DNA of 63,665 nucleotides, counting the filler, from Hausera hauseri (Eukaryota): the NCBI GenBank assembly GCA_046269625.1. It is 10 parts of 10 records of this genome, joined end to end, with 100 filler letters (N's around TTAATTAATTAA, not from the genome) between each part and the next. Parts side by side here need not be neighbours in the genome. Positions count along the whole stretch, not along the records: positions 34,590 to 38,621 come from JBJURY010806532.1; 9 more parts are not named here. One strand, 5' to 3'. The notes beneath the pieces were generated by a model. That model was not told where the DNA came from and ran no database searches. It was given only the letters and a program-made list of their open reading frames with translations. A program made the translations under genes and the position numbers. Below are positions 1,642-60,012 of the stretch, in pieces. Positions within the stretch are counted from its first letter, which is position 1, and each line of letters opens with the position of its first letter.

Positions 1642-4600
1642 TCATAATATTACCTCATAGTTTAGGTCATAAGTTTGACATCTGGGGTTTCGCATATGAG
1701 TTTTAGTATTCTTACTGTTGATTGTAAGATTTTCATACATACTTCCAATTTCTCTATCTGTATTTGGGGGGTGTTTTTGGAGCCAAAGAATAAGGACAGA
1801 AACTAAGACGACCGATCCTATAACGACTAGAAGAGCAATAATCAAGGAGTATACAACAAAACTGTCAACAGACATTTCCGTTACGGTTTCAATTGAAGGG
1901 GCCATACTTATAACATGGCGAAAACCATGAAGGTTCATTGAATCAGTCAATGTCTTGCACGGTAAGGGAGTCGTTCGTTGAGAAACGGAAGGATACTGTT
2001 TTTGTTCACTTTTGAATACAGGCGTTGCGCGAATTTGAAAATATCGTTGGGTAGTCGACAGGGCAGAGGTTATGATGTTATCACGTAATGACATTAGCAC
2101 AGGAAATTGCAGGATGGCGTTAAGTAACAAAAAATTGTTAAAACCAGGTACAGTAAAGCTTAGTTTCACTTTATCCTTACTGATATTTGATACCATAGTA
2201 CTATAATTGGTTTTAATAAGGATGTTATTGGAGGTGAGGTGCTTTACGTTAATATTAGCTGGAGTAAGGCATAATATTTTCAATGCTCTGTGATGTGACC
2301 CTATTACTACTGTGGTCAGATCCAACTTCTGTCTTATAGCAATCCAAGGGATTGTATAAATTTCCTTTAATTTATTGTCGAATGTTGTTGCTACTCCTTC
2401 CCACAAGTACTCTCCGGATATTTTTAACGGCTTGGCTGGAGCTTGGATCCATTGGAAAGTCAAATATCGATGTGCATAACTTACGTGGCAATTTAGTTGC
2501 AACCATACAGCTTCACTGTAATTAAATTCTTGGTGATCTATTCTAAGGGGTTCAAGGGCCTCCCCAAGCCTACTAATTGAGAGTGGGCAAATTTGTCCTA
2601 TTGAAACAGCCCGTAATTGTAGCCCCCTATGTTTTTCACACCAGAATAGTAAAACTGGGATTTCCCTGTGATATATAAATGTCGGTGCCTTCAGCAATTC
2701 GGAGTTCCATCTACTGATTTGTGTACTATTAACCCATTCTTCAATTACTTGCTGTAAGGCTTCTTCGTCCGAATGTACATAGTAGCAGTGGCCTCCTGGT
2801 GACTTAAACATACAATGGAATCGTTGGTAGCGGTGACGGCCTTGTACCAAAAAGATATTGACCTTAATGTTGTGAAGGAAGTCCGACACAAAGGTATATA
2901 AACGTAATTCATTCCTTTGCTTTGTCCATCCCCATTGAATTTTTATTCCGTGTGATAAAGATAATAAGCATAGCAATAAACAAAACATGTACAATATAGA
3001 AAACTTCGGCACGCCTAGATTTGTTGGAGCTAACTCGTTCCTGGTCTGGTTAATGCCAACATCCTGAGGTATTACCGTAACTAATTGTGTAGGGGCCTTT
3101 TTGCACCGATCTGCTGCTACAGTTATGATTTCGTCTCGCTTCCCGATTTTTTTTCGTATAAAAATGTTCGTTTCTGTAACATTTTCCACTTTATAGGGAC
3201 CTTTCCACGGGCGAGCTAATTTTGGTGACTTACCTTTTTTTACTGCAGGTTCCAAAAGCATCACGAAATCGCCTTGTTTGATTGAGTGAGGACGTGCCTT
3301 TTTATCGTAATTTCCCTTATATGTTTTCTGATAATCAAGTGTTAACGATTGTGCTAAGGCCCATGCTTTCGTCAATCGTTCCTTCAAATAGTTTACATAG
3401 TTCGGTTCATGTTTTGCCAGGGTCTCATCTGGAATTATTTCTAAATCCTTCGGCAGAAGTGGGTCACGCCCATACATAAGGAAGAATGGTGGTTGCTGTG
3501 TTGCCGAGTGTGGCGCAGTTCGCAAGGCGAACATACAAGCTGGGATGAACAAATCCCAGTCATCTTGTCTATCGTCCGTTACCGTAGCCAACATTGATAA
3601 TAATGTGCCATTTAATTTCTCGACCATACCATCACAGCAAGGGTGATAAGCAGCTGTTTTAAGCTTATATATAGAGAACAATCGGCAAACCTCTTGGAAC
3701 ATTTTATTTATAAATTCCGTTCCTTGATCTGTTAATATTTTCCTGGGAGCACCGTACCTGAACACTATTTCCTCGACAAATAATGCTGCAACAGTAAAAG
3801 CTGATTTATCAGCCATTGGAAATGCCTCTGGGAATCTAGTCAAGTAATCTACAAACACCAATATGTATTGGTTCCCGCTCTGCGTCTTCGGTAACGGTCC
3901 GATTATATCCATCGCTGAAAATTCCATGGGACTCGCTGGTGGTGGTATCGGATGCAACGGAGGTTTACATCGGTATCCCCTATTTCGTCTGGTCGCACAG
4001 ATCTTACAGCTTGCACACCATTGTTCGACATCCTTTTGAATTGTGCGCCAGTAATATTTTCGTTTAATTCTACCCAATGTCTTCTTATATGCAGGATGCC
4101 CTGCTAATAATCCGTCATGTTCTTGTTGCATAATGTCGTGTCGCCTAGATTCTGGTATCACTACCAACTGCCGATCATTGTACCAATAGCGTAATAATTC
4201 AGATGCAATAAGGTATTTTGCACCTTGACTTACCAAGTGTTGTATTAGTTCTTTATGAGAGGTATTAATTTTTCGTGTTCGCACAAATTCTCTGATTACT
4301 CTCAATTCCGCATCTTGCTCTTGTTGGTTAATCAGCATCTGAATTTCATCATCTGGGATATGTGCCGTAGTTATCTGGAAGGTCATTAATTGTGATATGT
4401 GTTTTGATTCACATCCTTCCTCCAAGCATTCTAGCTCTCGTTTAGTAGCGGGTCTACGTGACAACCCGTCCGCATTTTTATTATTTCTACCAGGCCGATA
4501 AAACACAGTTAAATTGTATGCTTGCAATTTTAGTTGCCACCGTTTTAGTCTTGAGTACGGATCTTTTACTGTTGAAAACTCTAACGGTGCATGATCTGTG

Positions 4601-6909
4601 AAGACTTTCACTTCATGACCCCATACGTAATATCGGAATTTTTCAATTGCAAAGACAATAGCCAACATTTCCTTTTCTATTACAGCATATTTTTGTTCAG
4701 TTTCCGACAAGGTTCTGCTTGCATACGCAATTACGTATTCCCATTTTGAGTCTGGTGGCATTTGTGATAACACAGCTCCCAATCCAGTGTTACTTGCGTC
4801 TGTAAATATAATGAATGGCAAGGAAAAGTCTGGATATCTGAGTATTGGTGCTGAAGACAACAGTTTCTTTAGTGTGTCAAATGATTCCTGGGTTTCTATC
4901 GTCCATAGGAATTTAGTTCCTTCATGCGTTAACGCAAATAATGGAGCTGCTATTGTACTAAAGTTTGGAACATGTTTTCTATAATAACCACACGTACCCA
5001 AAAACGCGCGTAGCTCTGTTATATTCTTCGGTATAGGCCATGCTGTGATGGCGGACACTTTTTCTGGGTTTACTTCTATGCCCTCAGCTGAAACAATGTG
5101 TCCAAGAAAAACAACTTTCAACATTGCAAATACACATTTCTTAAGTTTCAATTTGAATCCCCAAATTTCTAGTAAATCAAGAATTCTTTCGATATCATCT
5201 AGATGTTCGTCCAAGGTTCGTGAAAATATCACGATATCATCAATATAAACCATTGCGTGCGTACAGTCTAGCAGCATTGCCTCTAAGGCTTCTTGAAACG
5301 TTGAAGGTGCGTTACATAATCCAAAGGGCATTACATTGAACTCATATTGGCCTTTACCGGCGGAAAATGCTGTCTTATATTTATCCTCCTCAGCCAGTGG
5401 TACTTGCCAATACCCACTTTGCATGTCCATCGTTGTAAAATATTTGGAGCCTCGTAGTTTATCAAATATATCTTCCTGTAGTGGGAGTGGATATGAGTTC
5501 TTTACTGTTTGACTATTTAACTGTTGGAAATCCACACAAATTCTGGCTCCCCCGTCCTTTTTTGCTGCTACTACAATTGGCGATAGCCATGAAGAATTAC
5601 TTTTTCTGATGACATCATTTTCTAACATTTGTTGTAATTGACGGTTAACTTCTTCTTGCAGTGCATGTGGGATGCGATATGGTCGTTGCTTAATTGGCCT
5701 TTCATTTAATAAAGGGATGTGATGGACTACGCGGTCGGTTTTACCCAGGTCTGCATCTGATTTAGCAAAGGCCCTTAGGTGCCTTTTAAGAACACACAAC
5801 AGACGTATTTTATCTTTTCCAATTAAATCGGTTTTTATACTGTCCGCCTCTTCGAACGTGCTGATGCATTCTTCGGGCTGAATGATGTGCGATATTGCAC
5901 ATAACTGTCCAATAGTTGTATTTTGTCTGAGTACAACCGCTTGTCTATCGGTATTTACTACTCGAACTGGCAAATAGCCATCTTTAATGGGACTAATACT
6001 GCACGCTGCTTTTATTCCAAGCCTCCTATTTGAGGTTACATCAGGTTCGAATAGCATAGTTCCATTTACCATGTTTGGTGCATAACCTTGTATAATGTGT
6101 TCACTTGTGGGTTCCAATATGATTCCTTCTGGTACAATAACTACTTCCTTCCGGAATTTTACCGCTGGTATCGCGAGCTGTCCTGTAGCTAGGTTCAGAT
6201 ATCGTCCTGTACATTTACGTTGTAAATCAAGTCCCACAATTACATCCTCAACTAACTTATCGAATACTTTGAATGTGTGCTTCAGGCGTTTATTATAAAG
6301 TATTATATAAGTCGTCCAATAACCTACTGGCATTAATTTGTCGCCCCATCCTGATACAGTTGCTCGGTCCTCTTTCTTGGGGGGGGGCAGTTCAGATCTG
6401 TATCTCTCTGGTATACTCGATAATAACACTATTGAATCGTCACAACCAGTATCCACTAGAGCCACAACGTCCCAATCTTCGTGAATGGTTACTAAAGTAT
6501 ATGGCCTTTTCGTGTCCATCTTACTTTTACTAGATCGAAATGCACAGAAGTTACTAAAACTTGGTACTCTTACGTTCATGTTTTCGATTTCTGTATCCGA
6601 ATTTTCCTCATCTTCTGGCTTTATTTCGGTGATAGGTAATCTACTTGGTGTGACGATTTTTATGCCTTTCAACTGTTGTCGTAACTCTCGGTATTTAATA
6701 TATTTAGCTTTGCTACCGCTATATAACGCATCTAATTGATCATCTTTTAACTTCTCCAGACCATCTTTATCTGTTACGGGTAACTTGGGCAACGGTCTTC
6801 CCTGATTCCTAGGTTTGATTTGGTGCAGTCGAGTACAACTATTAATTTTATTGTCTCGTTCCTCACTCCTAGAATTCTTTATCCACCCCCATACATTTTT
6901 TTGGGTATT
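1642..6909 (-). CDS. pol: Pol polyprotein (aspartic protease, RT, RNase H, integrase) with in-frame C-terminal type I membrane protein extension
   Basis: ALVDTG; YIDD; TDAS...EKEMLA...TDH; HHCC; MDIIGP/TDQG/VEKLN; WKGPY. Then the signal-like FSILYMFCLLLCLLSLSHG and TM FVVYSLIIALLVVIGSVVLVSVLILWL. The frame is open from 6909. Confidence 0.93.
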   Translation of the reverse strand, partial: NTQKNVWGWIKNSRSEERDNKINSCTRLHQIKPRNQGRPLPKLPVTDKDGLEKLKDDQLDALYSGSKAKYIKYRELRQQLKGIKIVTPSRLPITEIKPEDEENSDTEIENMNVRVPSFSNFCAFRSSKSKMDTKRPYTLVTIHEDWDVVALVDTGCDDSIVLLSSIPERYRSELPPPKKEDRATVSGWGDKLMPVGYWTTYIILYNKRLKHTFKVFDKLVEDVIVGLDLQRKCTGRYLNLATGQLAIPAVKFRKEVVIVPEGIILEPTSEHIIQGYAPNMVNGTMLFEPDVTSNRRLGIKAACSISPIKDGYLPVRVVNTDRQAVVLRQNTTIGQLCAISHIIQPEECISTFEEADSIKTDLIGKDKIRLLCVLKRHLRAFAKSDADLGKTDRVVHHIPLLNERPIKQRPYRIPHALQEEVNRQLQQMLENDVIRKSNSSWLSPIVVAAKKDGGARICVDFQQLNSQTVKNSYPLPLQEDIFDKLRGSKYFTTMDMQSGYWQVPLAEEDKYKTAFSAGKGQYEFNVMPFGLCNAPSTFQEALEAMLLDCTHAMVYIDDIVIFSRTLDEHLDDIERILDLLEIWGFKLKLKKCVFAMLKVVFLGHIVSAEGIEVNPEKVSAITAWPIPKNITELRAFLGTCGYYRKHVPNFSTIAAPLFALTHEGTKFLWTIETQESFDTLKKLLSSAPILRYPDFSLPFIIFTDASNTGLGAVLSQMPPDSKWEYVIAYASRTLSETEQKYAVIEKEMLAIVFAIEKFRYYVWGHEVKVFTDHAPLEFSTVKDPYSRLKRWQLKLQAYNLTVFYRPGRNNKNADGLSRRPATKRELECLEEGCESKHISQLMTFQITTAHIPDDEIQMLINQQEQDAELRVIREFVRTRKINTSHKELIQHLVSQGAKYLIASELLRYWYNDRQLVVIPESRRHDIMQQEHDGLLAGHPAYKKTLGRIKRKYYWRTIQKDVEQWCASCKICATRRNRGYRCKPPLHPIPPPASPMEFSAMDIIGPLPKTQSGNQYILVFVDYLTRFPEAFPMADKSAFTVAALFVEEIVFRYGAPRKILTDQGTEFINKMFQEVCRLFSIYKLKTAAYHPCCDGMVEKLNGTLLSMLATVTDDRQDDWDLFIPACMFALRTAPHSATQQPPFFLMYGRDPLLPKDLEIIPDETLAKHEPNYVNYLKERLTKAWALAQSLTLDYQKTYKGNYDKKARPHSIKQGDFVMLLEPAVKKGKSPKLARPWKGPYKVENVTETNIFIRKKIGKRDEIITVAADRCKKAPTQLVTVIPQDVGINQTRNELAPTNLGVPKFSILYMFCLLLCLLSLSHGIKIQWGWTKQRNELRLYTFVSDFLHNIKVNIFLVQGRHRYQRFHCMFKSPGGHCYYVHSDEEALQQVIEEWVNSTQISRWNSELLKAPTFIYHREIPVLLFWCEKHRGLQLRAVSIGQICPLSISRLGEALEPLRIDHQEFNYSEAVWLQLNCHVSYAHRYLTFQWIQAPAKPLKISGEYLWEGVATTFDNKLKEIYTIPWIAIRQKLDLTTVVIGSHHRALKILCLTPANINVKHLTSNNILIKTNYSTMVSNISKDKVKLSFTVPGFNNFLLLNAILQFPVLMSLRDNIITSALSTTQRYFQIRATPVFKSEQKQYPSVSQRTTPLPCKTLTDSMNLHGFRHVISMAPSIETVTEMSVDSFVVYSLIIALLVVIGSVVLVSVLILWLQKHPPNTDREIGSMYENLTINSKNTKTHMRNPRCQTYDLNYEVIL

Positions 6910-9530
6910 TTACTACTTTTTATTTTTCGTTGCTTTGACCATTTGGATCCATAAACGCTCACTCTATCTGCTCCTCCACCACCATAATCTTCGTCTCGCT
7001 TTTCTCTCTCCCTCATCCACTGGGCCATAAATGCATGTTGTAAGCATCTGGCTAACGGCGGACAAAGTGCTGTTAGTATTTTCTTGGAACAACCAAAAAG
7101 TTGGAAATTTATAAATCCATTAGTTATTTGTGCGATTATCGTTCGTAGAATTTGCACTATGAAGTAAATAGCTAGAAATCCAGATGACACTTGTCCAAAC
7201 GTCATCATTCCCCCCCATAACTTTTTGAATATCGTCTTAGCTGCCTTGGTAAAATGATCCGGGCTTAAGATGTTTTCCCAGTTTGTTTTTCCATTTCCTG
7301 TATCAGTAACTTTCTGTGTATATGACACTATAAGCCTTTGTAATTGTTTCGGAAACAATAAGTATCTTCTTAATTTTTCCATACTAGCCTCATCGTACAA
7401 ACCTCCTTGAAAAAAATTAACATTATTGTCGAACTTCAATTGTTGTTTTAATGCCAGCATTGTCAGTTTCTTGGGAGTTATTATTTTCGTTCTTGACGGC
7501 ATCGTAACCCAGTGATCATGTCCAATCTTAAACAGTGGTGCAACGTTTCTTATGCACTCCTTTAATACCGTTGGATCTTCGGTTGGTATCAACATTACTC
7601 TCGTTATTGGTGCTACGTATCTTATGTGCCCATTATATTTTACGGCTATTTCATTGGTACATATCGTAGTATCTACCACTGGTACGTCAACTTCCCGACA
7701 CTGAAAGGTTACTAACCCTTCTCCAGTAGTTCTACCGAATACTCCTCGTTGTTTTGTTGGTAGGATTGGGGTATCTATCGAAGGGTTATGGGCTGCTACT
7801 GTGACTCGTAATGCCAATAGATCCTGTGTTATCAAGCAGTCGTTTTGGAGCATTTCCTTGTATATTTTATACTGATTATTGAGCATATAGTGGAACAGAT
7901 AATCCATTTTACCGTTGTAATATACCATTGGTTTAATCTCAGTTGGGTGCACTTGTTTTTGCGCATCTACTACTTCTGTTGTCTTAAGGTATATATCTTC
8001 GACGTTAGTAGAATATACCTCTGTTTTACATTTGATCACTATTTGTTTTCTTATCAATCGTATTGCATCATCGACTGTTGACATTAGGACTGCCGGTGTC
8101 TCAATCTCTGTTAACCGTTGTACGTCCGTATCCTCAGTGTGCGTCGGTGTTGGCTTTGAAAATCTAACACCTTTTGTAATATTGAACGTTACAGCTTTAA
8201 TGAAGGCTAGATTACAGGTTATAACTTCCACGTTCCAGGTAATTATCGAATCTGTGGTAAAACAATACCCATTACCATATACACAGTCCATCCGAATCAT
8301 TAGTTTCAATGTGTCAGCGTCAAACGTAATTTCTTTATCGGTAACTGTCCATGCATACAGATTTTGTACCACTATCCGTGATACTTCATCCACAGTTTGT
8401 CCTGTACATGTCCCGTCTTTACCTACCATACCTCCTTCATTTATTGTTAGGTATTTAATACCATTAACTATTGTTGTTATTTCTACCTTGTCGTTTACCT
8501 TCAACTTACCCAGTCTCACAGCCTCTTTGCAATCGTCCGGCAGCACTCTCTGGGGCTCATCTGGTGACGCTATTAATAGGTTCGTTGAGTGAGTATGGGC
8601 TTTGCCACAATGCCATTTTTTTGTTTGTTTCGTCAATTTACATTCCAACGCTCTTACTCGAAAAAATTTATTTTCCTGATATATATAATATTTTGTTGAT
8701 GGTTCTGTTATCAGTTTGTCCGGTTCGGCATCAGGGCATTTCTCTAGATCAACTAAGGAGTACGTGGCTCCTACTTCTGGTTTATCGCAATCAAATGCCT
8801 TGATCCCCTGCCCTTGAGGTAGACGCCATAAAACTAACATAATTAACAAGACACTCATCATTCCTTCCAAATTCAATCGTGGCGCATTATCCAATATTTC
8901 CTCAAAACCTTTTATTATTTGTAGAAAACCCTTTTCCATGTTATAGGGATTTTTAACGGGCCGACCTTGCTTTTGCTGGTATCCTCGTTCTGCTGGTTGT
9001 GGGATATGATTAAGGTCCAACAATTTGTCCCACCCACCAAATCGCTGTGCTCCCCCGGATAAATTATTCTTTGCAATCTCCATCGCAATCTCGTTATTAT
9101 TTTCAAAGTCCTCTTGCTTTTCACTTGACATCTGTACTCTCATTGCTAAATATACGAGGATTGCGATCATACGGTCCTTCGACACTGCTCCATCCTGCAT
9201 CCATTTTTGAATTATCTCACTATCCTTTAACGGATCGATTGAACTTGGTAATTCTTCCTTCGTTATTGCTTTTTCCATTTGCTGCAATACTTGTTTAAGG
9301 TGCCCTTCAATACCATGATCACCTTCTTTTTCCTCCTCTTGTGACCAAGGTTTGTCATCATCCTTGTATAAGATTTTATAAATTTTATAAAAAGTTTGTT
9401 TAATTTGTCTACTCTCCGGATATAAATTATTCGTCTCGGTCGTACGCAAAGCTCGGGTTAGTGTGTCAACACTAATTTGTTCTATTAGATTTTTTTTGGT
9501 CTCCCTCTTGGTTTCTTTCTTATCTGGGCT
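6879..9530 (-). CDS. env: Envelope glycoprotein, chuvirus/gB-like (class III-type), preceded by a ~200 aa helical leader and internal signal sequence
   Basis: Hydrophobic MMSVLLIMLVLW is followed by GIKAFDC...TYSLVDLEKC, a Cys-rich ectodomain (DGTC, QNDC, FQC, TICTNEI), GGLY, and the TM region GQVSSGFLAIYFIVQILRTII. The frame is open from 9530. Confidence 0.8.
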   Translation of the reverse strand, partial: SPDKKETKRETKKNLIEQISVDTLTRALRTTETNNLYPESRQIKQTFYKIYKILYKDDDKPWSQEEEKEGDHGIEGHLKQVLQQMEKAITKEELPSSIDPLKDSEIIQKWMQDGAVSKDRMIAILVYLAMRVQMSSEKQEDFENNNEIAMEIAKNNLSGGAQRFGGWDKLLDLNHIPQPAERGYQQKQGRPVKNPYNMEKGFLQIIKGFEEILDNAPRLNLEGMMSVLLIMLVLWRLPQGQGIKAFDCDKPEVGATYSLVDLEKCPDAEPDKLITEPSTKYYIYQENKFFRVRALECKLTKQTKKWHCGKAHTHSTNLLIASPDEPQRVLPDDCKEAVRLGKLKVNDKVEITTIVNGIKYLTINEGGMVGKDGTCTGQTVDEVSRIVVQNLYAWTVTDKEITFDADTLKLMIRMDCVYGNGYCFTTDSIITWNVEVITCNLAFIKAVTFNITKGVRFSKPTPTHTEDTDVQRLTEIETPAVLMSTVDDAIRLIRKQIVIKCKTEVYSTNVEDIYLKTTEVVDAQKQVHPTEIKPMVYYNGKMDYLFHYMLNNQYKIYKEMLQNDCLITQDLLALRVTVAAHNPSIDTPILPTKQRGVFGRTTGEGLVTFQCREVDVPVVDTTICTNEIAVKYNGHIRYVAPITRVMLIPTEDPTVLKECIRNVAPLFKIGHDHWVTMPSRTKIITPKKLTMLALKQQLKFDNNVNFFQGGLYDEASMEKLRRYLLFPKQLQRLIVSYTQKVTDTGNGKTNWENILSPDHFTKAAKTIFKKLWGGMMTFGQVSSGFLAIYFIVQILRTIIAQITNGFINFQLFGCSKKILTALCPPLARCLQHAFMAQWMREREKRDEDYGGGGADRVSVYGSKWSKQRKIKSSKIPKKMYGGG

Positions 9531-11983
9531 TCAGTATTTCGTTGCATCGTTCCTTTGGGCAGTACTTCGTCACCTAGTTCTGGTACTTCTGCAAATACCC
9601 ATAACGGTTCCGGTATCTCCTTTAATTGATTAATCGAATTATCTGAACCTGACTTGAGGGGCCGGATGTATTCTGTTGCACCCAATACCTTATTTATTTG
9701 TCGTTCCAATTTGTGTTGATCATCGTCCCTTTTCCTTTGGGATTCCTCAAGATATATTTCAACAATTTCGTTAGGATCCATTCCAGACATAACTCCTAAT
9801 TCCGTCCATTTTATATCTAAGTCATTTACTTGACGCCCCATGAACCTAATAGTAATAACAATATCCTCGTCATTACAACGCCACTGATTTTCAGGTAACA
9901 ATATCTTTAATATCTTCTGTATCGGTGCCTCAGGGTCTATCATAGCTTGTGTTTCAGTGTATACCTTTCCGTCAATTATCCTAAATTGAAGCAAAATGTC
10001 ACCTTCCTCTTTTTGAGGCTTAAAGCCTTCCTTTTGAGCGAATATTTGCAATATCAACCGTGCCATATCTCTTCGCGGAGCTCCATCTGCCGCTTGGGCT
10101 ATGAGATATTTTCTAACTTTGATAATCCGTGTTTTATGCTCGGTTATCCACTCACGGAGTTCATACATTTGATCCATTATTGTTGGTGTTACATCATTGG
10201 TTGGGTCGTTCTCTATTTTCTCGAGTAATGCCCTGAACTGTTCTTCGTGGTAGTCGATTTCATTTGCATTATCTGGCTCTTCAGCAGTTGCTGGAGGCGT
10301 TGTTACTTCATAATCTTCTAGTATCATTATAGGTATATCTTTATCTTTTTCACCTTCCTCCCTTGTTTTGGTTAGTACGTCTGTATTGTTATCGTTTAGC
10401 GGTGCTATCTGATTAAGGTGTAGCGATTTCAATCTTTCAAACTGGGTTCGCATATCATCAAGTTCCAATTTGTGTTGTTTCATTTGAAAAATCATTTCTT
10501 CCCGTGTTAAAGACATATCTTCTGTCTCAGGGGATACAGAGATTATACCTTCCTCCCGGAGACCTTGTGAACTATTAGTATGTGCTATCTGATTAGTCGC
10601 ATCCATTTCTTCATGCATCTGATAGCAATTCGTGTCATCCATTGGATTAAATGATGCACTTGCATCATACACAGAGTGCATCAGTGCCATGCTAGTCGGA
10701 TTAATATTGCCATACCTTATCGGGCACTTCTTTGCCAGATGTCCTGCTTGGCCACAATTGAAACAGTTCTTAGGTTGCGATACACCAAAATTTTGTTGCG
10801 TTGCAGGCTGTATCAAGCCTTGTTGTTGCTGTATGGGACATGTTTTTGCTGTATGTCCCCTTTGGCCACAAGCGTAGCATTGCTTCGGAGATTGTGCATG
10901 TGGCGGAGTGGTAAACGGCATTTGTGCCATATATGGGCATGACTTCGCCAGGTGTCCAAAGTTTTTACAATTATGGCACTGTATAAGCCCTTTTGCATTG
11001 ATATTATCGTGTTCGAGTATGGTTGTTTGGTTTCTGTTACCTGTGGATCGTAATGAATACGGCATAGTTTTGGCAGAACTTCCCATTGGCGCGACCTGCA
11101 ATCGATTGACTGCAGCACCGGTTGACATAGCATTTGATCCTGTTGGTTGTCGTACATTGCCGCCGTCTGTTGGGGACGTTTGTCGTTGTATTGGTGGTTG
11201 ATGTGGACGCACTCCGAGTCCCATATTCCATTGAGGCCTAGTGTATACCATTGGATGCCTCGGTGGTCGCAACCATTGTTGTTGCGGCCATCCTTTTCCA
11301 AGGTCCACGTGTTTGTTCCATGTGTTACGACCTGTTGGTTGGTTAATATTAAATGTTGATGACTGAGTAATTTGCGCATGAGGTATAGACGGTGACGTAT
11401 CTTGATGTAATAAACCTCTCTGTAATATTTGTGACATTTTAACATCGACATTTTCATGAGCTATAGCCTTTTTAACTAATTCACTAAATGTCGTGGCCTC
11501 ACTCTCGATTAAATGTCGCTGTACTTTGGGGTTTCGTAAACCCGTTATGAAGCAATCCACAAGAATAGGCTCTGTTTCAAAAACCTTCTTGTCGTCGGCT
11601 TTTTTATCTCTATTCTCGTTTTCCAGCGCGACTTTATATCGTTTTGCTAAAGCTTGTAAGGCTAGAGCGAACATATTCACGGATTCTCCCGCATGCTGCA
11701 CGCGTGATCGTAAATGTCTTAATCGGGCATTGGACGAAGGGTCCGGATCGACACATTTTCTCAATCTTTCAACTATTTCCTTCCATGGTTTATCCGCCTT
11801 GTCTATCTGAAGGTATGCCTGCAGTGCCACACCTTCCAAGTACCCTACCAATTTCTTTACTTTCTCTTTATCATCCCAGTCGACGCTATCCGCCTGTGCT
11901 TCATACATAGTAATGAAGTCGTCAAAGGCGGCCGGCTCACCGGCATATCTATTAATATTTAAGCCTGCATATAATTGCGCCAT
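9485..11983 (-). CDS. gag: Gag with capsid-like N-terminus, 3 CCHC zinc knuckles, SUMO/ubiquitin-like domain and C-terminal AT-hook
   Basis: Retrotransposon-gag N-terminus (WDDKEKVKKLVGYLEGVAL; QHAGESVNMFALAL). Knuckles CHNCKNFGHLAKSC, CYACGQRGHTAKTC and CFNCGQAGHLAKKC. Ends RKKPRGRPKK. Confidence 0.9.
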   Translation of the reverse strand: MAQLYAGLNINRYAGEPAAFDDFITMYEAQADSVDWDDKEKVKKLVGYLEGVALQAYLQIDKADKPWKEIVERLRKCVDPDPSSNARLRHLRSRVQHAGESVNMFALALQALAKRYKVALENENRDKKADDKKVFETEPILVDCFITGLRNPKVQRHLIESEATTFSELVKKAIAHENVDVKMSQILQRGLLHQDTSPSIPHAQITQSSTFNINQPTGRNTWNKHVDLGKGWPQQQWLRPPRHPMVYTRPQWNMGLGVRPHQPPIQRQTSPTDGGNVRQPTGSNAMSTGAAVNRLQVAPMGSSAKTMPYSLRSTGNRNQTTILEHDNINAKGLIQCHNCKNFGHLAKSCPYMAQMPFTTPPHAQSPKQCYACGQRGHTAKTCPIQQQQGLIQPATQQNFGVSQPKNCFNCGQAGHLAKKCPIRYGNINPTSMALMHSVYDASASFNPMDDTNCYQMHEEMDATNQIAHTNSSQGLREEGIISVSPETEDMSLTREEMIFQMKQHKLELDDMRTQFERLKSLHLNQIAPLNDNNTDVLTKTREEGEKDKDIPIMILEDYEVTTPPATAEEPDNANEIDYHEEQFRALLEKIENDPTNDVTPTIMDQMYELREWITEHKTRIIKVRKYLIAQAADGAPRRDMARLILQIFAQKEGFKPQKEEGDILLQFRIIDGKVYTETQAMIDPEAPIQKILKILLPENQWRCNDEDIVITIRFMGRQVNDLDIKWTELGVMSGMDPNEIVEIYLEESQRKRDDDQHKLERQINKVLGATEYIRPLKSGSDNSINQLKEIPEPLWVFAEVPELGDEVLPKGTMQRNTEAQIRKKPRGRPKKI

Positions 11984-25976: not shown

Positions 25977-26961
25977 ATGGCCAACCGAACTGTTCGAGAT
26001 GCTCATACAATTCATGGAAAAAATCCCCAAAATTTAATTGAAAAGGTTATTAGAACTCGGATATATGATTCTAGATATTGGAAAGAAGAATGTTTAGCAC
26101 TTACATGTAAGTTGTAAGTTTTTTGTTATTTTTTATTTAAATTTTGCTTTAGCTGAACTCTTAGTTGATAAAGCTTGTGAATTAAAATATATTGGCGGTG
26201 TTTTTGGTGGAACCAATACTCCAACTCCATTCTTGTGTTTATTGCAAAAGCTACTTCAGATCCAACCAGATAAAGATATTGCAATCGAATTTATCAAACG
26301 GAATGAGTTTAAATATTGTCGAGCATTAGGAGTCATGTATTTGCGTATCACCGGAAATGCTGTAGTAATTTACAAATATTTGGAAACGTTATATAATGAC
26401 TATTCCAAGTTGAAGAGGCAAGATCAAGACGAAAAGTTCACGATTACCCACATGGATGAATTTATCGACGAATTGTTGAGAGAAGATCGAGTCTGCAGTA
26501 TTGTTTTGCCGAGATTACCAAAACGAGATGTTCTCGAAGGGTCTAATGAACTCGAGCCAAGAGTTTCAATACTCGACGAAGATTTGCAAGATCTAATGTT
26601 ACAAGTCGTTGAAGAAGAAGAAGAAAAAGAGGAAATGAGAAAACGATCAGACAAAATTACGGCTAAGGAAGAAGTCAGTCGACGAAAACGAAGCCGTTCA
26701 AGAAGTCGGGATAGACGAAAATCAAGAAGTCGTTCACGAAGCCGAGGGAGATCTCGTTCACGTGGTAGATCACGATAGAGATCGAAAGACCGTGCTCGTA
26801 GACGTTCGCCGAGACGTGATCATAAAGATCGTAAACATGATAAACGGGAGCGTTCTCGCGATAGATCAAGAGAACGAAGATACGACAGAGAATCGTCACA
26901 AGATCGCAATAAAAGAAAAAGTGATCGAAAAGACTATGATAAACATAAGGACAGATATTAA
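25977..26961 (+). CDS. PRP38: Pre-mRNA splicing factor PRP38 (PRPF38A-like); exons 25977-26106 and 26153-26778, or to 26961 if the TAG is bypassed
   Basis: MANRTVRDAHTIHGKNPQNLIEKVIRTRIYDSRYWKEEC; PTPFLCLLQKLLQIQP; HMDEFIDELL; RS tail; 46-nt GT-AG intron. Confidence 0.93.
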
Positions 26962-31744: not shown

Positions 31745-34489
31745 ATGGCGTGTACGAAGACAGTTGCAGACCTAAAGTCTTACCTTCAATCATATCCTGC
31801 AGAATACCCGATCAAGCAAGGGTACATTGCGAGATTACTTTGTGAGGGTAGAAGCAATGAAGAAATTATGCAGCAGTTAAAATATATTGCCGTCGGCAAA
31901 GAGATAGATAAATGTATAAACGATAAATTGGTACGGGCATTTCTGATTCGTTTTGATAGAAAATTGAAACAAAAGAAAGCAAACATCACTTTTAACTGGT
32001 TACAGCTTACAAATTTATTTACTAAAAACTATGATGTACCATTTAAAAAATGTACTGGTTTTCTTTCTTCACAGCTGTTATTAAATCGCACAAAACAAAT
32101 TAAATCCACAACAACTGTATATAAATTGAAAAGGCATTGTTTAAGTTGTATATCAAAAATAAGAACACAGATAAACTTAGCAAAAGATAATGCATATTTA
32201 CGTAAAAAAATAAAAGAAATGAAGAGAAACACCAGTGCATGTAGTAATGAATGCAGATGTGAGAAAGAAATTCTTAAAAAAACAACTAAAAGTGTAGATA
32301 TATTGAAACGCAAATACGTAAATGAAAAAGTAAACAGGACACAATTGATAATATACAAGCATTTGTGGTGTAACGAGAAAGAAGCGAATCGGCTTAAAGA
32401 ACAGTTAGAGAAGTGTAAAACAGACATTTGCGTTACGCAAAAGGAACTACAGGAAGTCAGACAGTTTAATGAGAAAATAAAAATTAATATTAAAGAATTA
32501 AGGCTGAAAGCGAAAAAAAGAAGTTGATGAAATGAAAAAGCAAAATGCGAAAGATATCGCAGCAGCTGTGAAAGAAACAGATTCACAGATAAGTTTTTTA
32601 GAAAATGAAACACAACAAATACGAGAGAAGCTTGATGAAATGACTGAATGTAGTGAAGCAGTGAAAGAAGATTGCAAGACGTATGGATGCGACGTCAGGA
32701 AATGTGTGTACAAATGTCTTGTAAGTCAAGTCAGTGTGGATAAATGCTCCGAAATTATTAAATACGTAGGTGAGTGTTTGTTTCATAGGAAAGTTTCTTG
32801 CTTACCCGTAAAATCTGTCGTTGCGAATATGTCCTACGAGCTGGGTGTTTTGTCAGATATGCTGGTGGGCTACCAGCTGCACAAGATGCAGGGTGTTGCA
32901 ACGTTAGCATGGGACGCTACAAACTTTCAAGGCTCCCATGTTAATGAAGTGCATATAGAAACAGGCTCTGGCAGATTTGTAGTAAACATTGCAGTACTTC
33001 CTGGCGGTACTACTGCCGACTACTTCCACCAGATATGTGAAGCTCTCCTGGCTGTAATCCGCACTTACAGTGATGCATTTAATCAGGCGGAAACAGATGT
33101 CCGAAACATAGTTTTCGGCAAAATAAGAAGCTGCATGACTGACAGAGCAAGAGTTAATCACTCTGTAGTGCAGTTACTCCAGGAAGAGTTTGACGTGAAT
33201 GTGGTGGAGCTAAACTGCCTAGTACACCCGTTAGATGGTCTGGCTTGTGCTGCTAGGAGTATACTCATGACACTTGACACCAAGTGGAGAGTCCAATGCC
33301 AAAAAATACCTGGTACCGAATGTGTTGCAGCTACCCTTATTTACTGCATTTCCAAGCTGAGATACAAGAAAGGAGCGGGCGATCCTGCTGGGTTTAGGAT
33401 ATTTTTAAGACAAAAAAATCTCAGACCAGGCCTAATCCTCAGATATGTTGGAAACAGGATTAATGTCCTGTTTCGCATGGGGGACATCGTATTCCTTCAC
33501 CGAGATCAGAGAATTTGATGTGAATCGACGCCAAAACATATATGGCACTGAACCGAATGTGTTGCAGCTACCCTTATTTACTTTTTTACTTTCATTTCCA
33601 AGCTGAGGTACAAGAAAGGAACAGGTGACCCTACTGGGTTTACTGCATTTTAAGAGAAAAAATCTTAGACCCGGTTGGAAACAGGATTAATGTCCTGTTT
33701 CGCATGGGGGCCATCGTGTTCCTTCACCGAGACAAGTTGCTAGAATATATGAAAACATGTATTCGCACGCAACTGAAGGAGCTCATAATAGAACAGTTGC
33801 AGAACGATCTGGTTATGATCCAGCTCCGAGCTCTTGGGCTTTTTGCAAAAGTTCTGACAGAGCCATGGATGGGTGTGTTCTATGGAAATGCAGCGAAAAG
33901 ATTCACTCTTCAGCTGAACACATACATCCAGACAGGCGTTGACAATCTGAGGAAACTCAGCCACGAGCCAGACCACATATTACACTGCACGGAGGATGTA
34001 TTTGGGCAGCCTTTAAAACAATCGGATGATGTTGCGCGACTGCAAAATGTGCAGCGGAAATATAAGCAACATTTCACATACGCTGTTGCCGAGTTAGCAT
34101 CTTCATTTGAAGATGTGCTTAACAGACAACTGGCGCGTCATCTCAGTGGTGATCTGGCTGTTCCATCCGATGATATGCTGGCGAACACTGCATCAGCTCC
34201 CGCCAACAACATGTATGCGGAGAGGGTGTTAGGCATGACAGATGCTCTTTGGCGACGAGCTCCAAACGCCACCTGTGGCTTCATTAACGGCAAGGTCAAA
34301 GGTAACCTAAATAAGGTAATCGACTGGTTGGAGACATTTTCTGACAATGAGCAAAGAAAACTGGTTGCCTTTGCCACTAAACGCGCGCGTGAAGTGCGCA
34401 AAGCTAATGAAGCCAAAACTCATCTACTCCATAATGAGATGGCTAGGCATCAGAAACAGCATGTGCAGAAGATGGAAAAAACCAGAAAG
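31745..34489 (+). mobile_element. DDE transposase with CxxH motif (hAT/P/MULE/Kolobok-type clade), disrupted by a frameshift and an internal duplication
   Basis: LAWDAT (D1), MTDRA (D2), NCLVHPLD (CxxH), NNMYAERVLG (E). N-terminal coiled coil. Frameshift at the A-run near 32513-32519. Confidence 0.7.
33315..33731 (+). repeat. Diverged tandem duplication (~190 bp) within the transposase
   Basis: 33315-33504 and 33552-33731 share accgaatgtgttgcagctacccttatttac...gttggaaacaggattaatgtcctgtttcgcatgggg. Confidence 0.85.
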
Positions 34490-34589: not shown

Positions 34590-37500
34590 CCCTCTCATGG
34601 GAATTATTGGAGAAACCAGTTCTGGGTTGGCATATATAAAGGACAATTTTGTCCTCATGATTTCGGTATCTAATTTACAGTCATTCATTATCATTTTGTG
34701 ATATAATTCCATTATTCCAACTTGTCCTTTGTAGTAGAATTAATTGTCTTTGTTTTTCAAATAATCCTCAATCCGGACATCCTGCGTTTCTAGCTGGTAA
34801 GTCTTCACATTTATTTCCGTTTCTGCGACGAAAAATGCCTCATAATTAGTGGCGAACATCACTACATCGCAACGAAAGATCATTTCTTTTTTAATAAATT
34901 TCAGTCCATGCTGATCCAAGATTAATATAGTAGATATAAGGTGTTCCGATACGTCCTCGCGTGTGCTTGAGTTGGTATCGGATTTATCTACATATCGCTT
35001 TCCGGTAGTTTCATTAAACCTTAATTCCTTGATTTTGATAAAATTACAAAAAAACTTCTTCCGGAAGGCGGTTCCCAGATTATAACCGAACTTCTAAAAG
35101 CACAGGTTCCGTCTTCTAAATAATATTTTTGATTTTCAGTGTAACTTAGTGACGCTATGGAACATTACTCTTGTGATCGCATCTCCAATTCATAGAAATC
35201 CACCACTACCACATTTGCTTGTAATCCTTTTCCGGTATCATATTCTGCGCCGTAACAATGTACACTGTACATATCTAACCTTCCGGCTACTACCTTGTAC
35301 GCCCTGATTATCTTTCCCGGTTGTATTTCTAATTCCATACTATCCCATTGTACTCTTCCGGTCTCCTTAGCCTGTTTGCAGTGCTGGCGTTCTAAGTTCA
35401 TAGGGATAATCGGAGTTGTCGGTTTAATTATTGAGGAATGCCCGCGTACTAATATACAATGGAAAATACTATGAGATCGTCTCAACATACATTCCATTCC
35501 ATCTAACTATATCAGTTCTTGTTGTTGGTACAGGAAATAATTTTTTTCTATTGTTTCCAACTTGTGCGGTCTAGCATTTTCGCACACGTCTAGATCCATT
35601 GGGGAATATCTCTGTTCTAGTTTAAACTTATCGCAGTCGTAGACGGTAACAGCGCTTATATATTTTATTAGCATCATCAAAGTGAGTAGGCTGATTAACC
35701 AATTTGATTCATTTTTCCGATAACCAACATCCTCTGTTGTTAAAATACGTAACATATCATCGAGTTTATTGCTGATCCGTCTGTCGTCTTCCTTGTCAAA
35801 CAGTTTTGACCAATTTACTTCGCAGGGCAATATTTCTGCTGCTTTTCGTGCTAATCTTATAACTCTATTGATTTCATTCTCTAGATTAGGGTTTATTTTG
35901 ACAGCTAAGTATAGTAATACTTTTCTCAATTCCTAGTTGGTGTTTTCTACCATGACCTTTTCGATTACCGATTCATCGGCTAAGTTACTTTTCGATAACT
36001 TAAAACGTGAACTTCGCATCATTCTGGCTTCATCGAATATTATCTTTTCTTTATCATATAATACATCACCTCGAAGGTTCGAATAATTTACAATTCGTAT
36101 TAAATTCTTTATTAACTCATTTAATTCCTCATTGTTTGTACTGAGAGTCGGAATCGACAACGGCCTCAGTTCTCTAATCAATTCTCCATTATAGGCCACC
36201 TCTTCTCGCGTTTTCTTGGGCCTACCAATTGGGCGTTTCGGCCTTGGGCCCTTAGCGGTTAGGTCACTCAGTAGTACTAAATTTATATCGTATTGTTCCT
36301 TGTTTTCACCAGTTTGTAAATATTCGAAATACATTGCAGCATCTCGGACTCCCATAATCTGTCCCACGCATTGCTATGACCTTGCATTACGTGTGGCTTC
36401 CTCTTTTGTCTGCTTATTAGCTATGGTTGCTACTATTCGACTTGTTTCGTCGGGAATAATCCCGACATCTATTAATTGTTCTAGGTCGTCGAGTATTCTA
36501 CCTCTAAAGTAAAATCTATAATTTAACTCGTTTCTTCCGCCGTTATTTAATAACCAGTCTCTTACGTCCCTCAGATAGGAATATGTAGTTAATTCACATT
36601 CTTTGTCATCCATCCACTCGTACGATATCATTACTTTCATTGTTACCTGAGGTTTAGCCCTCAAGATTTTAGCGTATTCTCTTATCAAAAGTTTCTGCAC
36701 CATGCTATAAATCGTATTCTTACTAGATAATTTAGTTAATGTCGGAATAAGTTGTCTTAACTTATTTTCGGTAATGTTTCCGTTAATTAGTTCGATTAAA
36801 TCCCTTTCATTTAGCGCTGAATCCAGGAACATCTCCACGTTGAATCTCCCACTCTGCGGACGTGTCTCTACTTCATTTAGTTGTACCGGAGTCGTGGGTT
36901 TTTCGGCAATCATCGCATCTAAATAAGCATCCCATTCCGGTTTGTTTTCAACGTCTAGAACTCTATAGTCCGCTAAGGCTATATTTGTTCTATGTACATT
37001 TCCTCGGATTTCTTCCTATCTTGGTTGTATTTCCTTCATCTGTGTAGTTCGGAATCCTACTGCGTTTCCACAAGCATACTGAATCATTTTCAGTAATTTG
37101 CCTAATTCATTAGAATTGATAAGTCCTTTTTGGTGATAATCTGTTAGTTCAACAATTACATCTCTTTGCCATATTTGTACGAATTCTCGCTTGTTTTTGA
37201 TTTCTGATTCGGTAAAAGCATATTTGTTCCGGTAGATTCCGAGCTCTTTTACTAATTTATCTAACCTTGTTGCTTATTGTTGGGTTTTAATACAGGTTTC
37301 TTCAACCTGTCTTATTTTAGGCATCAATTGTTTCATCTTATCATCATTAATCTTTGCCATTTCTACTAGTAGGAAGGCAAATTCATACATCTCATTTATA
37401 ATTTTTGAGTCAGGATCTATTGCGTCAAGCAATTTCTTTACAAACTTAGATTCCTGAAAACTAAGATGTTGGTCATCTTTTATCTTTTTTAACTCGGAAT

Positions 37501-38621
37501 GAAAATTCTGATCTGATCCGGCCTTTTATTCTTGTGGTTTGTGCAAGAATTTTATTGCGTCCGTTAAAGTGACTCGATATTCCGGACAAATGTCTCGGGT
37601 TTCAATATCTTGCACAGAGATCTTATCGATAGGTCTATCTGCTAAATGCTGAATTCCTTCTAGTCTGACATTTCTTAATGTTGGGTAAAAATTACAAGTC
37701 ATATTTCGCTTTTCTGTAAAATTCCTCTCTTCGACCATTTTATAGGTCTCTTCCAGTATCGTCGCTTCTTGTTTCTTATTCATAAAATTTAGCCGTCGTA
37801 ATGCTTTAAATTGAATTCGGACATTTATTTCTGCCTTTATTGTGTCCAAATTACGTGCGCTTTCTTCAAACTGTTTCTTTATAGAAGGCTTGCTCTCTGA
37901 AAATTTTTTCTTACGGTTTTCCACTAATTTACTTAGTCGCGTTACTAATTTGGACCATTGCGACAATTGATTGGCGATTATTGGCTTTGCCATTATAGCC
38001 TTATCTAGCATCTTATATGCATATTTTAACTCATCATCTGGACCTTTTACGAAGTTTATAATCAGACTGACATAACTAAATTCGTCCTTATATTCGTCGA
38101 ATTCTATGATGCAAGCTTTTATTATATATTTGGTTTCTTCATTATTCATGAACATGATTCAATTTTGTAAACTACTAATCTGCTATCTTTTTTCATTCTC
38201 CATTTTAATGCGACTCTAAGTCCGCGCATCGTCTAGGTTCGGCAAAGGCAATTTTTATCATTTCCATTAATGGAGCAATATATACTGAGTCTATACCCAA
38301 TATTTCTATATCGACATCACTTCGACTACTAAAAGGTTTTTCTCTAAGTCGATTAATTATTGCAAAACGAATTTCATCCATCATACGTTCTAAATTTCGG
38401 ACAACTCTCTTTAGTTTTGGATTTGCTTCTATGGTAGACAATAGCTTCTGAACCTTAGCGACTTTTACGTCGACATTATCTTCATTTTTGCTTCATCCTT
38501 CCGAAAATTCGACTCCACTTTTAATCCATGATTCTAACTCATGTTTCCATTTTAACAATGTTTCAGGTGATACCTCTTCAGGTTGTCCTAAGTCGATTGC
38601 TTCATCAAGCTTTCCTTCACT
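34590..38621 (-). pseudogene. Decayed relative of the gag-env element: helical region, UBL, AT-hook, leader, chuvirus/gB-like glycoprotein
   Basis: YRFYFRGRILDDLEQLIDVGI (UBL); RPIGRPKK; LRKVLLYLAVKI and WSKLFD (leader); signal followed by VTVYDCDK...YSPMDLDVC; MIMNDC...ANPELVSPIIP. Multiple in-frame stops. Confidence 0.8.
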
Positions 38622-38721: not shown

Positions 38722-41700
38722 GCAGTGGTTGAAGCCTCTGTAGTAAGGATGAGTTCCGCATCAGGCTTGGGGAATGCAAGAATGTCGACAGTCTTAATTC
38801 CTTCGCATAGCTTATCAGACTTATCAAACAGGTCAGGAGTCCACTGGATTGGATGAGGTTTTTTGCCGCCGCTTAAGTGAGAAAATGGTGCGGTAAGTCC
38901 AGAGCAGTACGGCACATACTTGTGAACGAAGTGAAAGTTCCCAAAAAGCTCCTCATTTCTGTTGTTGTTCGAGGTAGTTGTATACGTTTGAGAGCTTCAA
39001 CACGTTCTGGCTGAGGATAATGACATTTGCTGAAATGATGTGTCCGAGAAAGTTAATACGCTTTTGGACGAAGTGACATTTCGTAAAATTAATTTGTAAA
39101 TTATGGTGGTTACGTCGTTGAAAAATAGAACGAAGATGTTCCTCATGCTGTTTGGTTGAAGACAAAGCAATCAAAATATCGTCGATATATAGGTGCGCGA
39201 AAGTAAAATCCGAGAGGATGGAATCGATGTGATGTTGGAAAGTCTGCGTAGCGTTGATTAAACCAAAAGGCATATAAATGTATTCGTACATGCCGAAAGG
39301 TGTCGTAACGGCAGTTTTCTCGATGTCCTGGGGTGCTACAGGAATTTGATGATATGCCGTGGCTAAGTCTATGGTTGAATATACTGTAGTGGAATTGAGC
39401 CGTTGCAGGATATCCTTAATTAATGGTAAAGGATATGCATCCATAAGAGTTAAAGTGTTTAGTTGACGGTAATCGCAGCATGATCGGAAGGATCCATCTT
39501 TTTTGGACAAAGTGTAAAGGCGAAGATAACGGCGATTTAGATCTTCGTACAATGCCGGAGCGTTTAAGGTCTAGAAATTCGGTTTCCACAGCTTGCCTAC
39601 GACGAAGTGACAATGGACGTACCTTTTGACAAATAGGTCTTTGGTGTTGCATTATGATGTGATGAGAAGTGCTGTTTGTAGGTTTGAAGATTCGGTCCTT
39701 CTGAACTAAGAGGAGGCATAAAGTGTGTATGTATTGCCGTAGACTTGCAGGTAATTGCGAGAGATTTGGTGATGGTGACGGTATTGAGTCAATATGTGCA
39801 GTGACGTGTGATGTTTGCGAGTTATTGAAATCAATGGGAATTTGATGTGGTATAGTAGTATTAAAAATAGTGTTTGAAGAGGTAATTTTGTCTACTGAAT
39901 GTGGTGAACCAACGCAATCGTAGTTGTCAAAACCAAATCTCGACTGAATATCGATTTTATCATTAAAAAATTTACGAAATAAAAAATGCATGTTGAAGAA
40001 GTTTGGATTACTTACAAGATTTTTGAGTATAGGCTTCCGCAGGAAGATTGTTTGCGCCTTGGCGGATATACTACTTATTCGCTCGGTAAGATATCCATTA
40101 GTGTTACGTTTCAGATATTGTTCTTTGTAATCAACTAAAAGATTATAGTGCAACAAGAAATCCGAACCTAGGATTGCTGTGCGGACGTTAGCGACGGTAA
40201 ACGTCCAATGAAAAGTGGAATGAAATTTTGGTAAGATGTACGACAATTTAGATGTACCTAAAATGTCAAGCGGTTGTCCTGAAGCCGTAAATAAAGATTT
40301 AGCTTTGAATGGTGAATTTTGTACAGAGAAAGTGAGTGGTATCAAAGAAACCGCAGCGCTTGTGTCGATAAGGAAGTCTATGGATTGCGTTGTTGGTGTG
40401 GTTATCGAAGCGTTTAGTGTAAAGACTGCAAAAGAAGTGTGTCGGCAGGTAGTATTAGAGAAGTTGCCTTTGCCAGATTCTGTCGTGAGTACTGGCGGCG
40501 AAATTAGTTTTTTTGGATTAGAGAGATCGACTGACTATTACTAGGGACAATAGAACGTCTGTCGGTAGAATGGTTAGGGTTGTTATTATAGTTGCAGCCT
40601 GAAAGACATTTCTGAGCATGGAATTTAAATTTCGCATGGTAAATGGAAACGATCTTGTCTGAATGTAAATTTGGAGAGTAATACCTACACCATAAACAGC
40701 ATTTATTAGCTTTCTTATAAAATTTGCTATGATAATAGCACACAAAAGATCGTGCAGGCAATGGTGACCTGTTTCTGAAAACAGAACGAATATAATTATA
40801 AATAGGAACACTTCGTTGTGGTAATGAAAGATCGTACAACCTATTATTAATGTTATTTATTGTGTGTTGTAATGCTAAGTTTTCAGCGCGTAATTGGCTC
40901 AACTGTTGCTATATTGTTGTATGGAGTTGACTGTCGCTTGTTGTGACCGCTGCTCATACAATTGGTTGAGAATTCAATTGTAGCACTTTAGGTGCTTTAT
41001 CAGCCAATTCCGCCAATTTATTCAACACCCTAGATTCCTAGACAACGGTAAGAAGTGCCCTAATTTGTACAGGAAACGCGTTTAAGAAATATCTCCGCAG
41101 AAGGTCTGAATTACGCTGCCTAGTTACACCCAGCATTTGTAGGTGAGTCAACGACGTACGCAAGAACTCAGAAGGTTTTGTGTTCCAATGGCGTTGCCGT
41201 TGAAAAACCGATGAATTATGGAGTCCATAGATGGTTTGGTAAGCTTTACAACGGAATTGTATAGATGGGTGTATGAATCAGGTTGTTAAAGTATGTCTAG
41301 CAAGTCATGAATGCACGTGTCTACTGTAGTCGGTAAAAGACAAAGTAGGTTATGGGCTTTGGCTAGAGAATAAGTAATACCATTAGACTGCATCCAAAAT
41401 TTATGAAAGCTAAGCCAGGTTTTGCTGGTGGGACGGAAGGTGTATATGTGGTGAAAGTAAATGGTGTGGTGACGGTCGAATTGTGGTGAAAAACAAAATG
41501 TGATGGTTTAGAGGTAGTTTTGTCAGTGGCATCAATGGTGGGTGAAGAGTCCATGCCACGACGTATGCGCAAATGTACATGGATAACAAGATGTGGGGTT
41601 GAAGGAGAGAAAAATTGTGGATATTGGCATTAACGAGTGGTAGATTATTAAGTTAAATAAGTCTGAAACAGCAGTAAAACGTTGTACATATTTGTGTAAG

Positions 41701-59552: not shown

Positions 59553-60012
59553 NNNNNNNNNNNNNNNNNNNNNNNNNNNNNNNNNNNNNNNNNNNNTTAA
59601 TTAATTAANNNNNNNNNNNNNNNNNNNNNNNNNNNNNNNNNNNNNNNNNNNNGGTTCATTCAAATTGAACAAATCTGATTGGTCGGCACAAGACAGTGCG
59701 CGTTGACATGGTTATATTTTTCATTATTTAAAAAATCTTTTCGGAGAATGGTTAGGTTTTTCTGCTCCTCTCCTGTCTTTATTTATTTCTAGAATTGTAA
59801 CATTGAAAATACTGATGTGTTACTTAGTCGAGCGATAGATGAGGTGCTGAGCTTTCCAAAATGTAAGAGTAAAAACGAATATCTGATCGATTGTATGAGA
59901 AAGCTGAGATAGCAATTGGATATTACATATACTTATGGAGATAATGAGATCAAAATGTTAGGTTTGAAGCCCATGATATCACGCCAATTGTTCAAAAGCC
60001 AACAGTTGAAGA

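Follow-up and report, generated by a model that had tools for sequence, protein, structure and literature searches.

The 4,032-bp contig studied here (positions 34590-38621) is very probably a broken fragment from inside a repeated element, in which one frame joins a ubiquitin-like (UBL) domain to a class III glycoprotein, with a likely Bcl-2-like remnant between them; the element is likely a Burro-like Ty3/gypsy retrotransposon of the gag-env-pol type. The window, that is the whole stretch of 63,665 nucleotides of Hausera hauseri DNA that was analysed, consists of 10 contigs joined via N-spacers, so that adjacency within it is meaningless; the finding takes up most of one of these contigs, which shows no repeat in the window by self-BLAST. 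The comparator, element 1, lies on the contig at 1-16765. The features of both elements are listed in Table 1.

Table 1. Features of the decayed copy (upper nine rows) and of element 1 (lower six rows), in window coordinates.
Feature	Position	Strand	Evidence
5'-most coding piece, other frame, cut by contig end	38208..38621	-	138 codons, 1 stop
Upstream Gag-side cargo	36914..38203	-	430 codons, 5 stops
Three-helix domain, part of conserved unit	36659..36820	-	profile and model
Integral ubiquitin-like (beta-grasp) domain, contains FRGRILDD	36422..36649	-	profile, PDB UBLs, model
Basic GRP motif, AT-hook-like variant or nuclear-localisation-like stretch	36212..36241	-	motif comparison
'Leader', likely degenerate Bcl-2-like block	35795..35989	-	profiles, place, register
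Sole hydrophobic segment of frame, predicted internal signal/anchor of glycoprotein	35654..35698	-	hydropathy peak 1.92
Class III glycoprotein, N-terminal part (Monjiviricetes_fusion, PF24664)	35060..35653	-	E 3.3e-10, 2 stops
Glycoprotein continuation, other frame, cut by contig end	34593..35048	-	PF24664 E 6.5e-6, 1 stop
Element 1 gag ORF: capsid, three CCHC knuckles	9485..11983	-	Pfam
Element 1 helical+UBL unit	9746-10126	-	profile
Element 1 RGRPKK	9491-9517	-	motif
Element 1 env ORF: Bcl-2-like block, signal, PF24664 glycoprotein, transmembrane segment	6879..9530	-	
Element 1 Bcl-2-like block	9015-9293	-	profile
Element 1 pol ORF: protease, RT, RNase H, integrase; downstream of glycoprotein	1642..6909	-	

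The sequence-only reading had described four ORFs sharing one minus-strand frame and split only by single stops, and we confirmed this arrangement, with the stops at 36374-76, 35933-35, 35507-09 and 35165-67. The extent proposed for it was too short, since the frame stays open for 430 codons further upstream. From 38203 to 35060 on the minus strand this frame holds 9 stops in 1,048 codons; by comparison, the remaining minus frames hold 126 and 95, and shuffled sequence averages 81. It ends in frame breaks near 38205 and near 35050, and each of the pieces beyond carries one stop, which brings the decay to 11 stops across three coding pieces plus two frame breaks. The whole contig is coding, with about 1,340 codons visible, and both of its ends are cut within coding sequence; a Pfam scan of the 5'-most piece returned no family match. 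This decayed copy is unable to make the protein. The single frame retains, in order, the cargo, the helical domain and the UBL, then the basic GRP motif and the leader, and lastly the hydrophobic segment and the glycoprotein.

The helical domain, which had escaped the earlier reading, stands directly before the UBL in every relative carrying the UBL unit; both fold searches made with it were filled by UBL matches, and no fold was assigned. A profile of the combined helical+UBL unit, built from 12 units of 9 other proteins with neither element included and with boundaries set by eye, matched residues 468-593 of this copy (39.3 bits, E 2.5e-14, 0/500 shuffles) and residues 620-721 of the element 1 gag (5.5 bits, 0/500 shuffles). 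The UBL family profile also matched the UBLs of ubiquilin-2, Dsk2 and RAD23B in the PDB (E 6e-5 to 3e-4), and a model from 11 sequences (pLDDT 81) has a beta-grasp C-terminal half (Foldseek E about 5e-5; Z 13.1, rmsd 1.2, 74 aligned). The fold predicted from the single sequence had a pLDDT of 31.6 and was not used. A direct Pfam/PDB scan of the UBL piece alone gave no ubiquitin match, and the Pfam ubiquitin matches in the relatives fall below curated cut-offs. The domain has no terminal Gly-Gly; among single-domain sequences it comes closest to ubiquilin, Dsk2 and RAD23B. On the third-party profile, the PDB matches and the fold, the UBL proposed for both elements is real and homologous between them. 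Compared pairwise, the two copies are equalled by 293/1000 shuffles for the UBL and by 77/1000 for UBL plus hook, and the match becomes significant only once relatives are brought in. Three relatives (P0032, P0033 and P0034) have two tandem helical+UBL units each.

The AT-hook consensus is an RGRP core with basic flanks. GRPKK occurs in both elements, as had been reported, but this copy reads IGRP and so lacks the first Arg of the core; with its basic flanks it qualifies as a candidate AT-hook only. RGRP is found in element 1, P0002, P0005, P0032 and P0034, and PGRP in others. A GRP[KR] motif arose by chance in 20/2000 shuffles of this protein.

The leader of the earlier reading lies in the expected place and register. 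It is a Bcl-2-like block, clear in element 1 and likely a weak remnant in this copy. In leave-one-out profile tests, element 1, P0002, P0007 and P0012 were each recovered by the others at 32-46 bits. The element 1 block scored 33 bits (0/500 shuffles). When a five-sequence profile (814 positions) was compared with the PDB, 51 of the 54 matches at E <=10 were forms of Bcl-xL, at profile positions 47-125 with a best E of 0.24, these rows not being independent of one another. The aligned part covers the BH1-BH2 region. Pfam Bcl-2 was matched in P0007 (E 0.00096) and P0032 (E 0.0015), below curated cut-offs in both. In the present copy the third-party profile placed residues 739-789 where the block is expected, with a weak 0.8 bits (39/500 shuffles of the whole protein); confined to the expected window, the match was reached by 13/1000 shuffles, and a profile including element 1 gave 7/300 and 5/1000. 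The pairwise comparison of the leader with element 1 gave 40/1000 shuffles, or 11/1000 when trimmed by eye. A direct Pfam/PDB scan of the leader piece alone returned no Bcl-2 match, and the ESM Atlas offered no usable match for the element 1 leader. The BH1-side helix is still recognisable here, the GGW of BH2 is not kept, and the stop at 35933-35 breaks the leader inside the Bcl-2-like helix. The leader of this copy is likely a degenerate Bcl-2-like remnant.

The hydrophobic segment coincides with the start of the PF24664 match, of whose 653 profile positions only 5-359 are present on the contig. Searched by tblastn against element 1, whose own glycoprotein matches PF24664 at E 5e-68, the two glycoprotein pieces gave E 5e-13 and 1e-12 (0/1000 shuffles). 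The pairwise alignment suggested as a check was thus significant for the glycoprotein (E 5e-13), but not for the UBL, hook and leader. All of the motif pairs listed earlier were found in the same order in the two elements, with spacings, in codons, of 94/113, 99/112, 39/46, 56/78 and 319/317 (this copy/element 1); the MNDC..NP..PIIP pair is among them, although it lies in a different frame, past the frame break near 35050. Because the non-glycoprotein pairwise tests fail, the motif pairs alone are insufficient to establish the module. Leader plus glycoprotein are 23% identical between the two elements, and in a glycoprotein tree this copy was unplaced on a long branch of 2.21. The old lineage deduced from low identity agrees with the accessible text of PMC13524379, but the low identity is inflated by the decay that this branch reflects.

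Database relatives were collected by a phmmer search, with stops read as X, against 1.84 billion representatives (26 proteins), by a profile search (7) and by a cluster look-up (2), 35 in total, and 24 of these were scanned with Pfam. A word-index protein search had found no match for the upstream 820 aa, nor for the element 1 env, which reflects a limit of sensitivity, since the HMMER search then found the 26 relatives. The best match, P0002 (E 8e-24), has capsid, CCHC, UBL, RGRP, Bcl-2-like block, signal and glycoprotein in a single ORF. PF24664 was present in 22/24 of the proteins scanned; in 15 of these 22 an aspartic protease follows the glycoprotein in frame, with an RT as well in nine, and the remaining 7 end in or just past the glycoprotein, this count of fused forms being biased upward because separate env ORFs would appear only as short proteins. 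Pol upstream of the glycoprotein was seen in 0/22 of the scanned glycoprotein-bearing relatives, as the sequence-only reading would have it, and in homologous relatives the stretch sits between capsid/CCHC and protease-RT-integrase. The capsid of the relatives is gypsy-type (Ty3_capsid, Retrotrans_gag), with no BEL/Pao domain in any scan. Among the nine capsid-bearing relatives, which were themselves profile members (earlier profiles, built without P0030-P0036, detected the same domains in P0030-P0036 at E 2e-25 to 1.5e-4), the UBL unit is present in 7, the GRP motif in 5 (one of them GRPP), the Bcl-2-like block in 4 and all three in 3; P0010 and P0019 have none of the module parts. The module is therefore shared by relatives, but as a family trait it is modular, with optional parts. 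We also observed two or more aspartic-protease domains per ORF in P0005, P0028, P0030-P0032 and P0035. P0008, a retrotransposon polyprotein of 2,627 aa, bears an NCBI label that assigns it, as a hypothetical protein, to a Flavobacteriaceae MAG, and is probably binned eukaryotic DNA. Locus scans of viral and metagenome contigs gave no match.

A large diverged repeat family was observed in one public run, in which 12,311 contigs are similar to this one and cover 30/30 bins; the survey rests on one run of one study (share of words 0.24), and the figure is not a copy number. By identity, 423 of these contigs fall at 99%+, 1,556 at 95-99%, 4,496 at 90-95% and 5,836 at <90%, and 126 extend past the contig ends. 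Some copies vary in length near 35050 and 35170. No RNA run matching the stretch was present among those listed.

These data bear on whether the contig could instead be a piece of an endogenised negative-strand RNA virus (chuvirus- or Monjiviricetes-like), with a glycoprotein lying beside unrelated ORFs and motif pairs due to chance. PF24664 is indeed a viral fusion family, and the motif pairs outside the glycoprotein are pairwise non-significant; however, the retrotransposon helical+UBL unit matches at the expected place with 39 bits, the long relatives are retrotransposon polyproteins, and a transposon family agrees with the thousands of similar contigs seen in a single run. We regard this explanation as largely refuted and extremely unlikely.

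The fusion of the Gag side with Env claimed for the family stood for P0002, P0032 and P0034, which hold the entire stretch in one ORF, but not for element 1, where gag and env are separate: the gag ORF stops just past GRPKK, and since the same stretch is split there at -1 overlaps, fusion is not universal. At both joints of element 1, gag/env (9485-9530) and env/pol (6879-6909), the ORFs overlap in -1 on a stretch of 7-8 A, and the first joint holds an A-AAA-AAA heptamer. The overlaps may be homopolymer slips in that copy or else two programmed frameshifts, which would yield Gag, Gag-Env and Gag-Env-Pol in graded amounts. Such joints lend something to the idea that some of the stops are real in the working family, so that Gag side and Env come from separate or recoded ORFs with no fusion, and the four stops of 35165-36376 are absent among the 40 differences listed of 1,026 between this copy and the run. 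Nevertheless, one stop falls within the conserved N-terminal block of the glycoprotein and another within the Bcl-2-like helix, and the three upstream stops (37526-28, 37274-76 and 37016-18, among the same 40 of 1,026) differ in about 99% of the depth of other copies. Together with the three single-ORF relatives, these observations make it very unlikely that the fusion is absent from the working family.

The element 1 pol is 35-44% identical to the pol of the relatives. Beyond the integrase it continues for about 480 aa (about 1642-3000), in which hydrophobic stretches occur, and after its stop a 507-codon ORF (118-1641) follows in the same frame with a weak match to RNase_T (E 0.027); long post-integrase tails are also seen in P0006, P0008 and P0021. 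P0013 is a close database relative of element 1, being 91% identical to its env over 272 aa.

The upstream Gag-side cargo of the decayed copy is absent from the sequence-only reading. A stretch of it (36926-37375) has one homologue, P0003 (38%, E 4e-17), and there is a hint of an internal repeat of about 190-230 aa in 36914-38621 (1/1000 and 0/1000 shuffles, with several windows tried). The statement that capsid and pol are not visible was borne out on the full 4,032-bp contig. The helical domain is preceded by 570 codons or more in which no CCHC knuckle was found, and the search there for a capsid gave nothing convincing (2.9 bits, 8/500 shuffles). A capsid-like alignment of residues 403-476 (7/300 and 8/500 shuffles) was dropped as unproven because the lone homologue, P0003, does not keep these residues. 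The contig is cut in coding sequence, and capsid and CCHC may therefore sit further upstream.

That capsid, knuckle and pol are all missing from 4 kb, and that the upstream cargo, with its lone homologue, exceeds in length that of compact relatives, could also point to a non-autonomous or rearranged derivative, which kept Gag-side cargo and Env, lost capsid or pol and was copied by other elements. However, the contig ends within coding sequence on both sides and the run has contigs that reach beyond these ends. Absence of capsid and pol from 4 kb is also expected, since Burro polyproteins, in the accessible text of PMC6431247, measure 4,873-5,140 aa and have a long stretch of cargo separating Gag from Env. 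We consider the derivative unlikely, and the internal piece of a gag-env-pol element remains the preferred reading.

Other contigs of the window contain features of their own. The neighbouring contig carries a separate decayed gypsy element (38722-40900) with gag-protease-RT pieces and no glycoprotein seen. Its RT piece (38936-39730) was rejected as a case of pol upstream of the glycoprotein because the spacer between the contigs is artificial. Two intron-free host-like ORFs were also observed, one of UBX/FAF1 type at 60010-60936 (Pfam E 1e-5 and 5e-5) and one RS-rich at 26098-26778, which resembles the splicing factor PRP38. At 31709-34489 there are three consecutive plus-strand ORFs, transposase-like by eye and with no Pfam match under E 0.01, in a region with a 180-bp duplication (33315-33505 and 33552-33732).

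For an internal piece of a gag-env-pol element, the domain order suggests how working family members would operate. A single polyprotein would be made, whose Gag side (capsid, UBL and Bcl-2-like block) would remain cytosolic, while the hydrophobic segment, as an internal signal, would direct the glycoprotein into the ER lumen. After cleavage by signal peptidase the Gag side would stay anchored in this membrane; a second transmembrane segment would bring protease-RT-integrase back into the cytosol. The outcome would be a coupling of capsid assembly to a fusogen-bearing membrane for cell-to-cell spread. We infer this topology from standard membrane-protein topology and from the second transmembrane segment of element 1.

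Optional cargo for host control is the likely role of the UBL and of the Bcl-2-like block, which might serve in proteasome docking or as a decoy, and in delaying apoptosis. More tentatively, and with the balance of probability against it, the helical+UBL unit and the Bcl-2-like block could together make up an old and swappable cassette for host control in a broad gag-env-pol clade, in which the Bcl-2-like anchor would double as the Env signal and an anti-apoptotic decoy would be left membrane-anchored after the fusogen is cut away. If true, the two parts would be no oddities of planarian Burro, and the elements would be selfish ones that prevent the death of the host cell during budding.

The contig is not a discovery by itself, since the copy is dead and the layout has been published for Burro. 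Its value is comparative: both elements, only 23% identical to each other over leader plus glycoprotein, and several relatives keep helical+UBL ahead of Env, the Bcl-2-like block was gained or lost just before the Env signal among relatives, and the cargo known from Burro is extended to compact elements. It also supplies small domains for testing proteasome and apoptosis interference by invertebrate enveloped retroelements.

Several known systems resemble the element. The Anakin elements (Dezordi et al. 2020, PMC7642597, accessible text) are BEL/Pao retrotransposons that carry a chuvirus-like glycoprotein; they share with the present element a class III glycoprotein of this type in a retrotransposon, whereas the relatives found here have a gypsy-type capsid and a pol 35-44% identical to that of element 1. 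The GAG-ENV-POL errantiviruses of PMC13524379 (Chary and Hayashi 2026), with an HSV/gB-type ENV, occur in Nematoda, Bryozoa and Platyhelminthes, and the accessible part of that paper argues for an ancient origin. Like them, the present element is multi-copy and has a class III glycoprotein behind a hydrophobic segment. Their order of glycoprotein before pol is found in element 1 and in 15/22 relatives, while this contig ends inside Env, and the Env identity of about 18-32% between their members can be set beside the 23% between our two elements. The elements catalogued in that part of the paper are intact, unlike this broken copy, and neither 'ubiquitin' nor 'AT-hook' occurs in its main text.

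The closest likeness is with Burro/GYPSM1, giant gypsy-like LTR retrotransposons of planarians (PMC6431247, Arkhipova and Yushenova 2019). As described in the accessible text, Burro exceeds 30 kb, encodes Gag, CCHC, a Ubi2/SUMO-like domain, a BCL2-like domain, an in-frame Env and a protease, and carries MATH/BIR/ankyrin cargo. Interference with proteasome and apoptosis was raised there and left untested. Our literature search found no description of a UBL/Bcl-2-like cassette beyond that paper, although primary reports and figure files may hold more. Compared with what the accessible text reports, this copy has no MATH, BIR or ankyrin domain by Pfam scans of the about 1,340 visible codons (4 kb), and its Bcl-2-like block is degenerate; for Burro the same text is silent on the GRP motif and on the helical domain that precedes the UBL. 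The copy shares with Burro the UBL upstream of Env in the same frame, a mononegavirus-like Env, the position between these two of its likely BCL2-like remnant, long Gag-side cargo and a high copy number, and decaying fragments with stops and frameshifts are likewise described from Dugesia japonica. By this analogy the piece appears to work as Burro and the GAG-ENV-POL elements do, with the pol and LTRs needed for formal membership lying off the contig.
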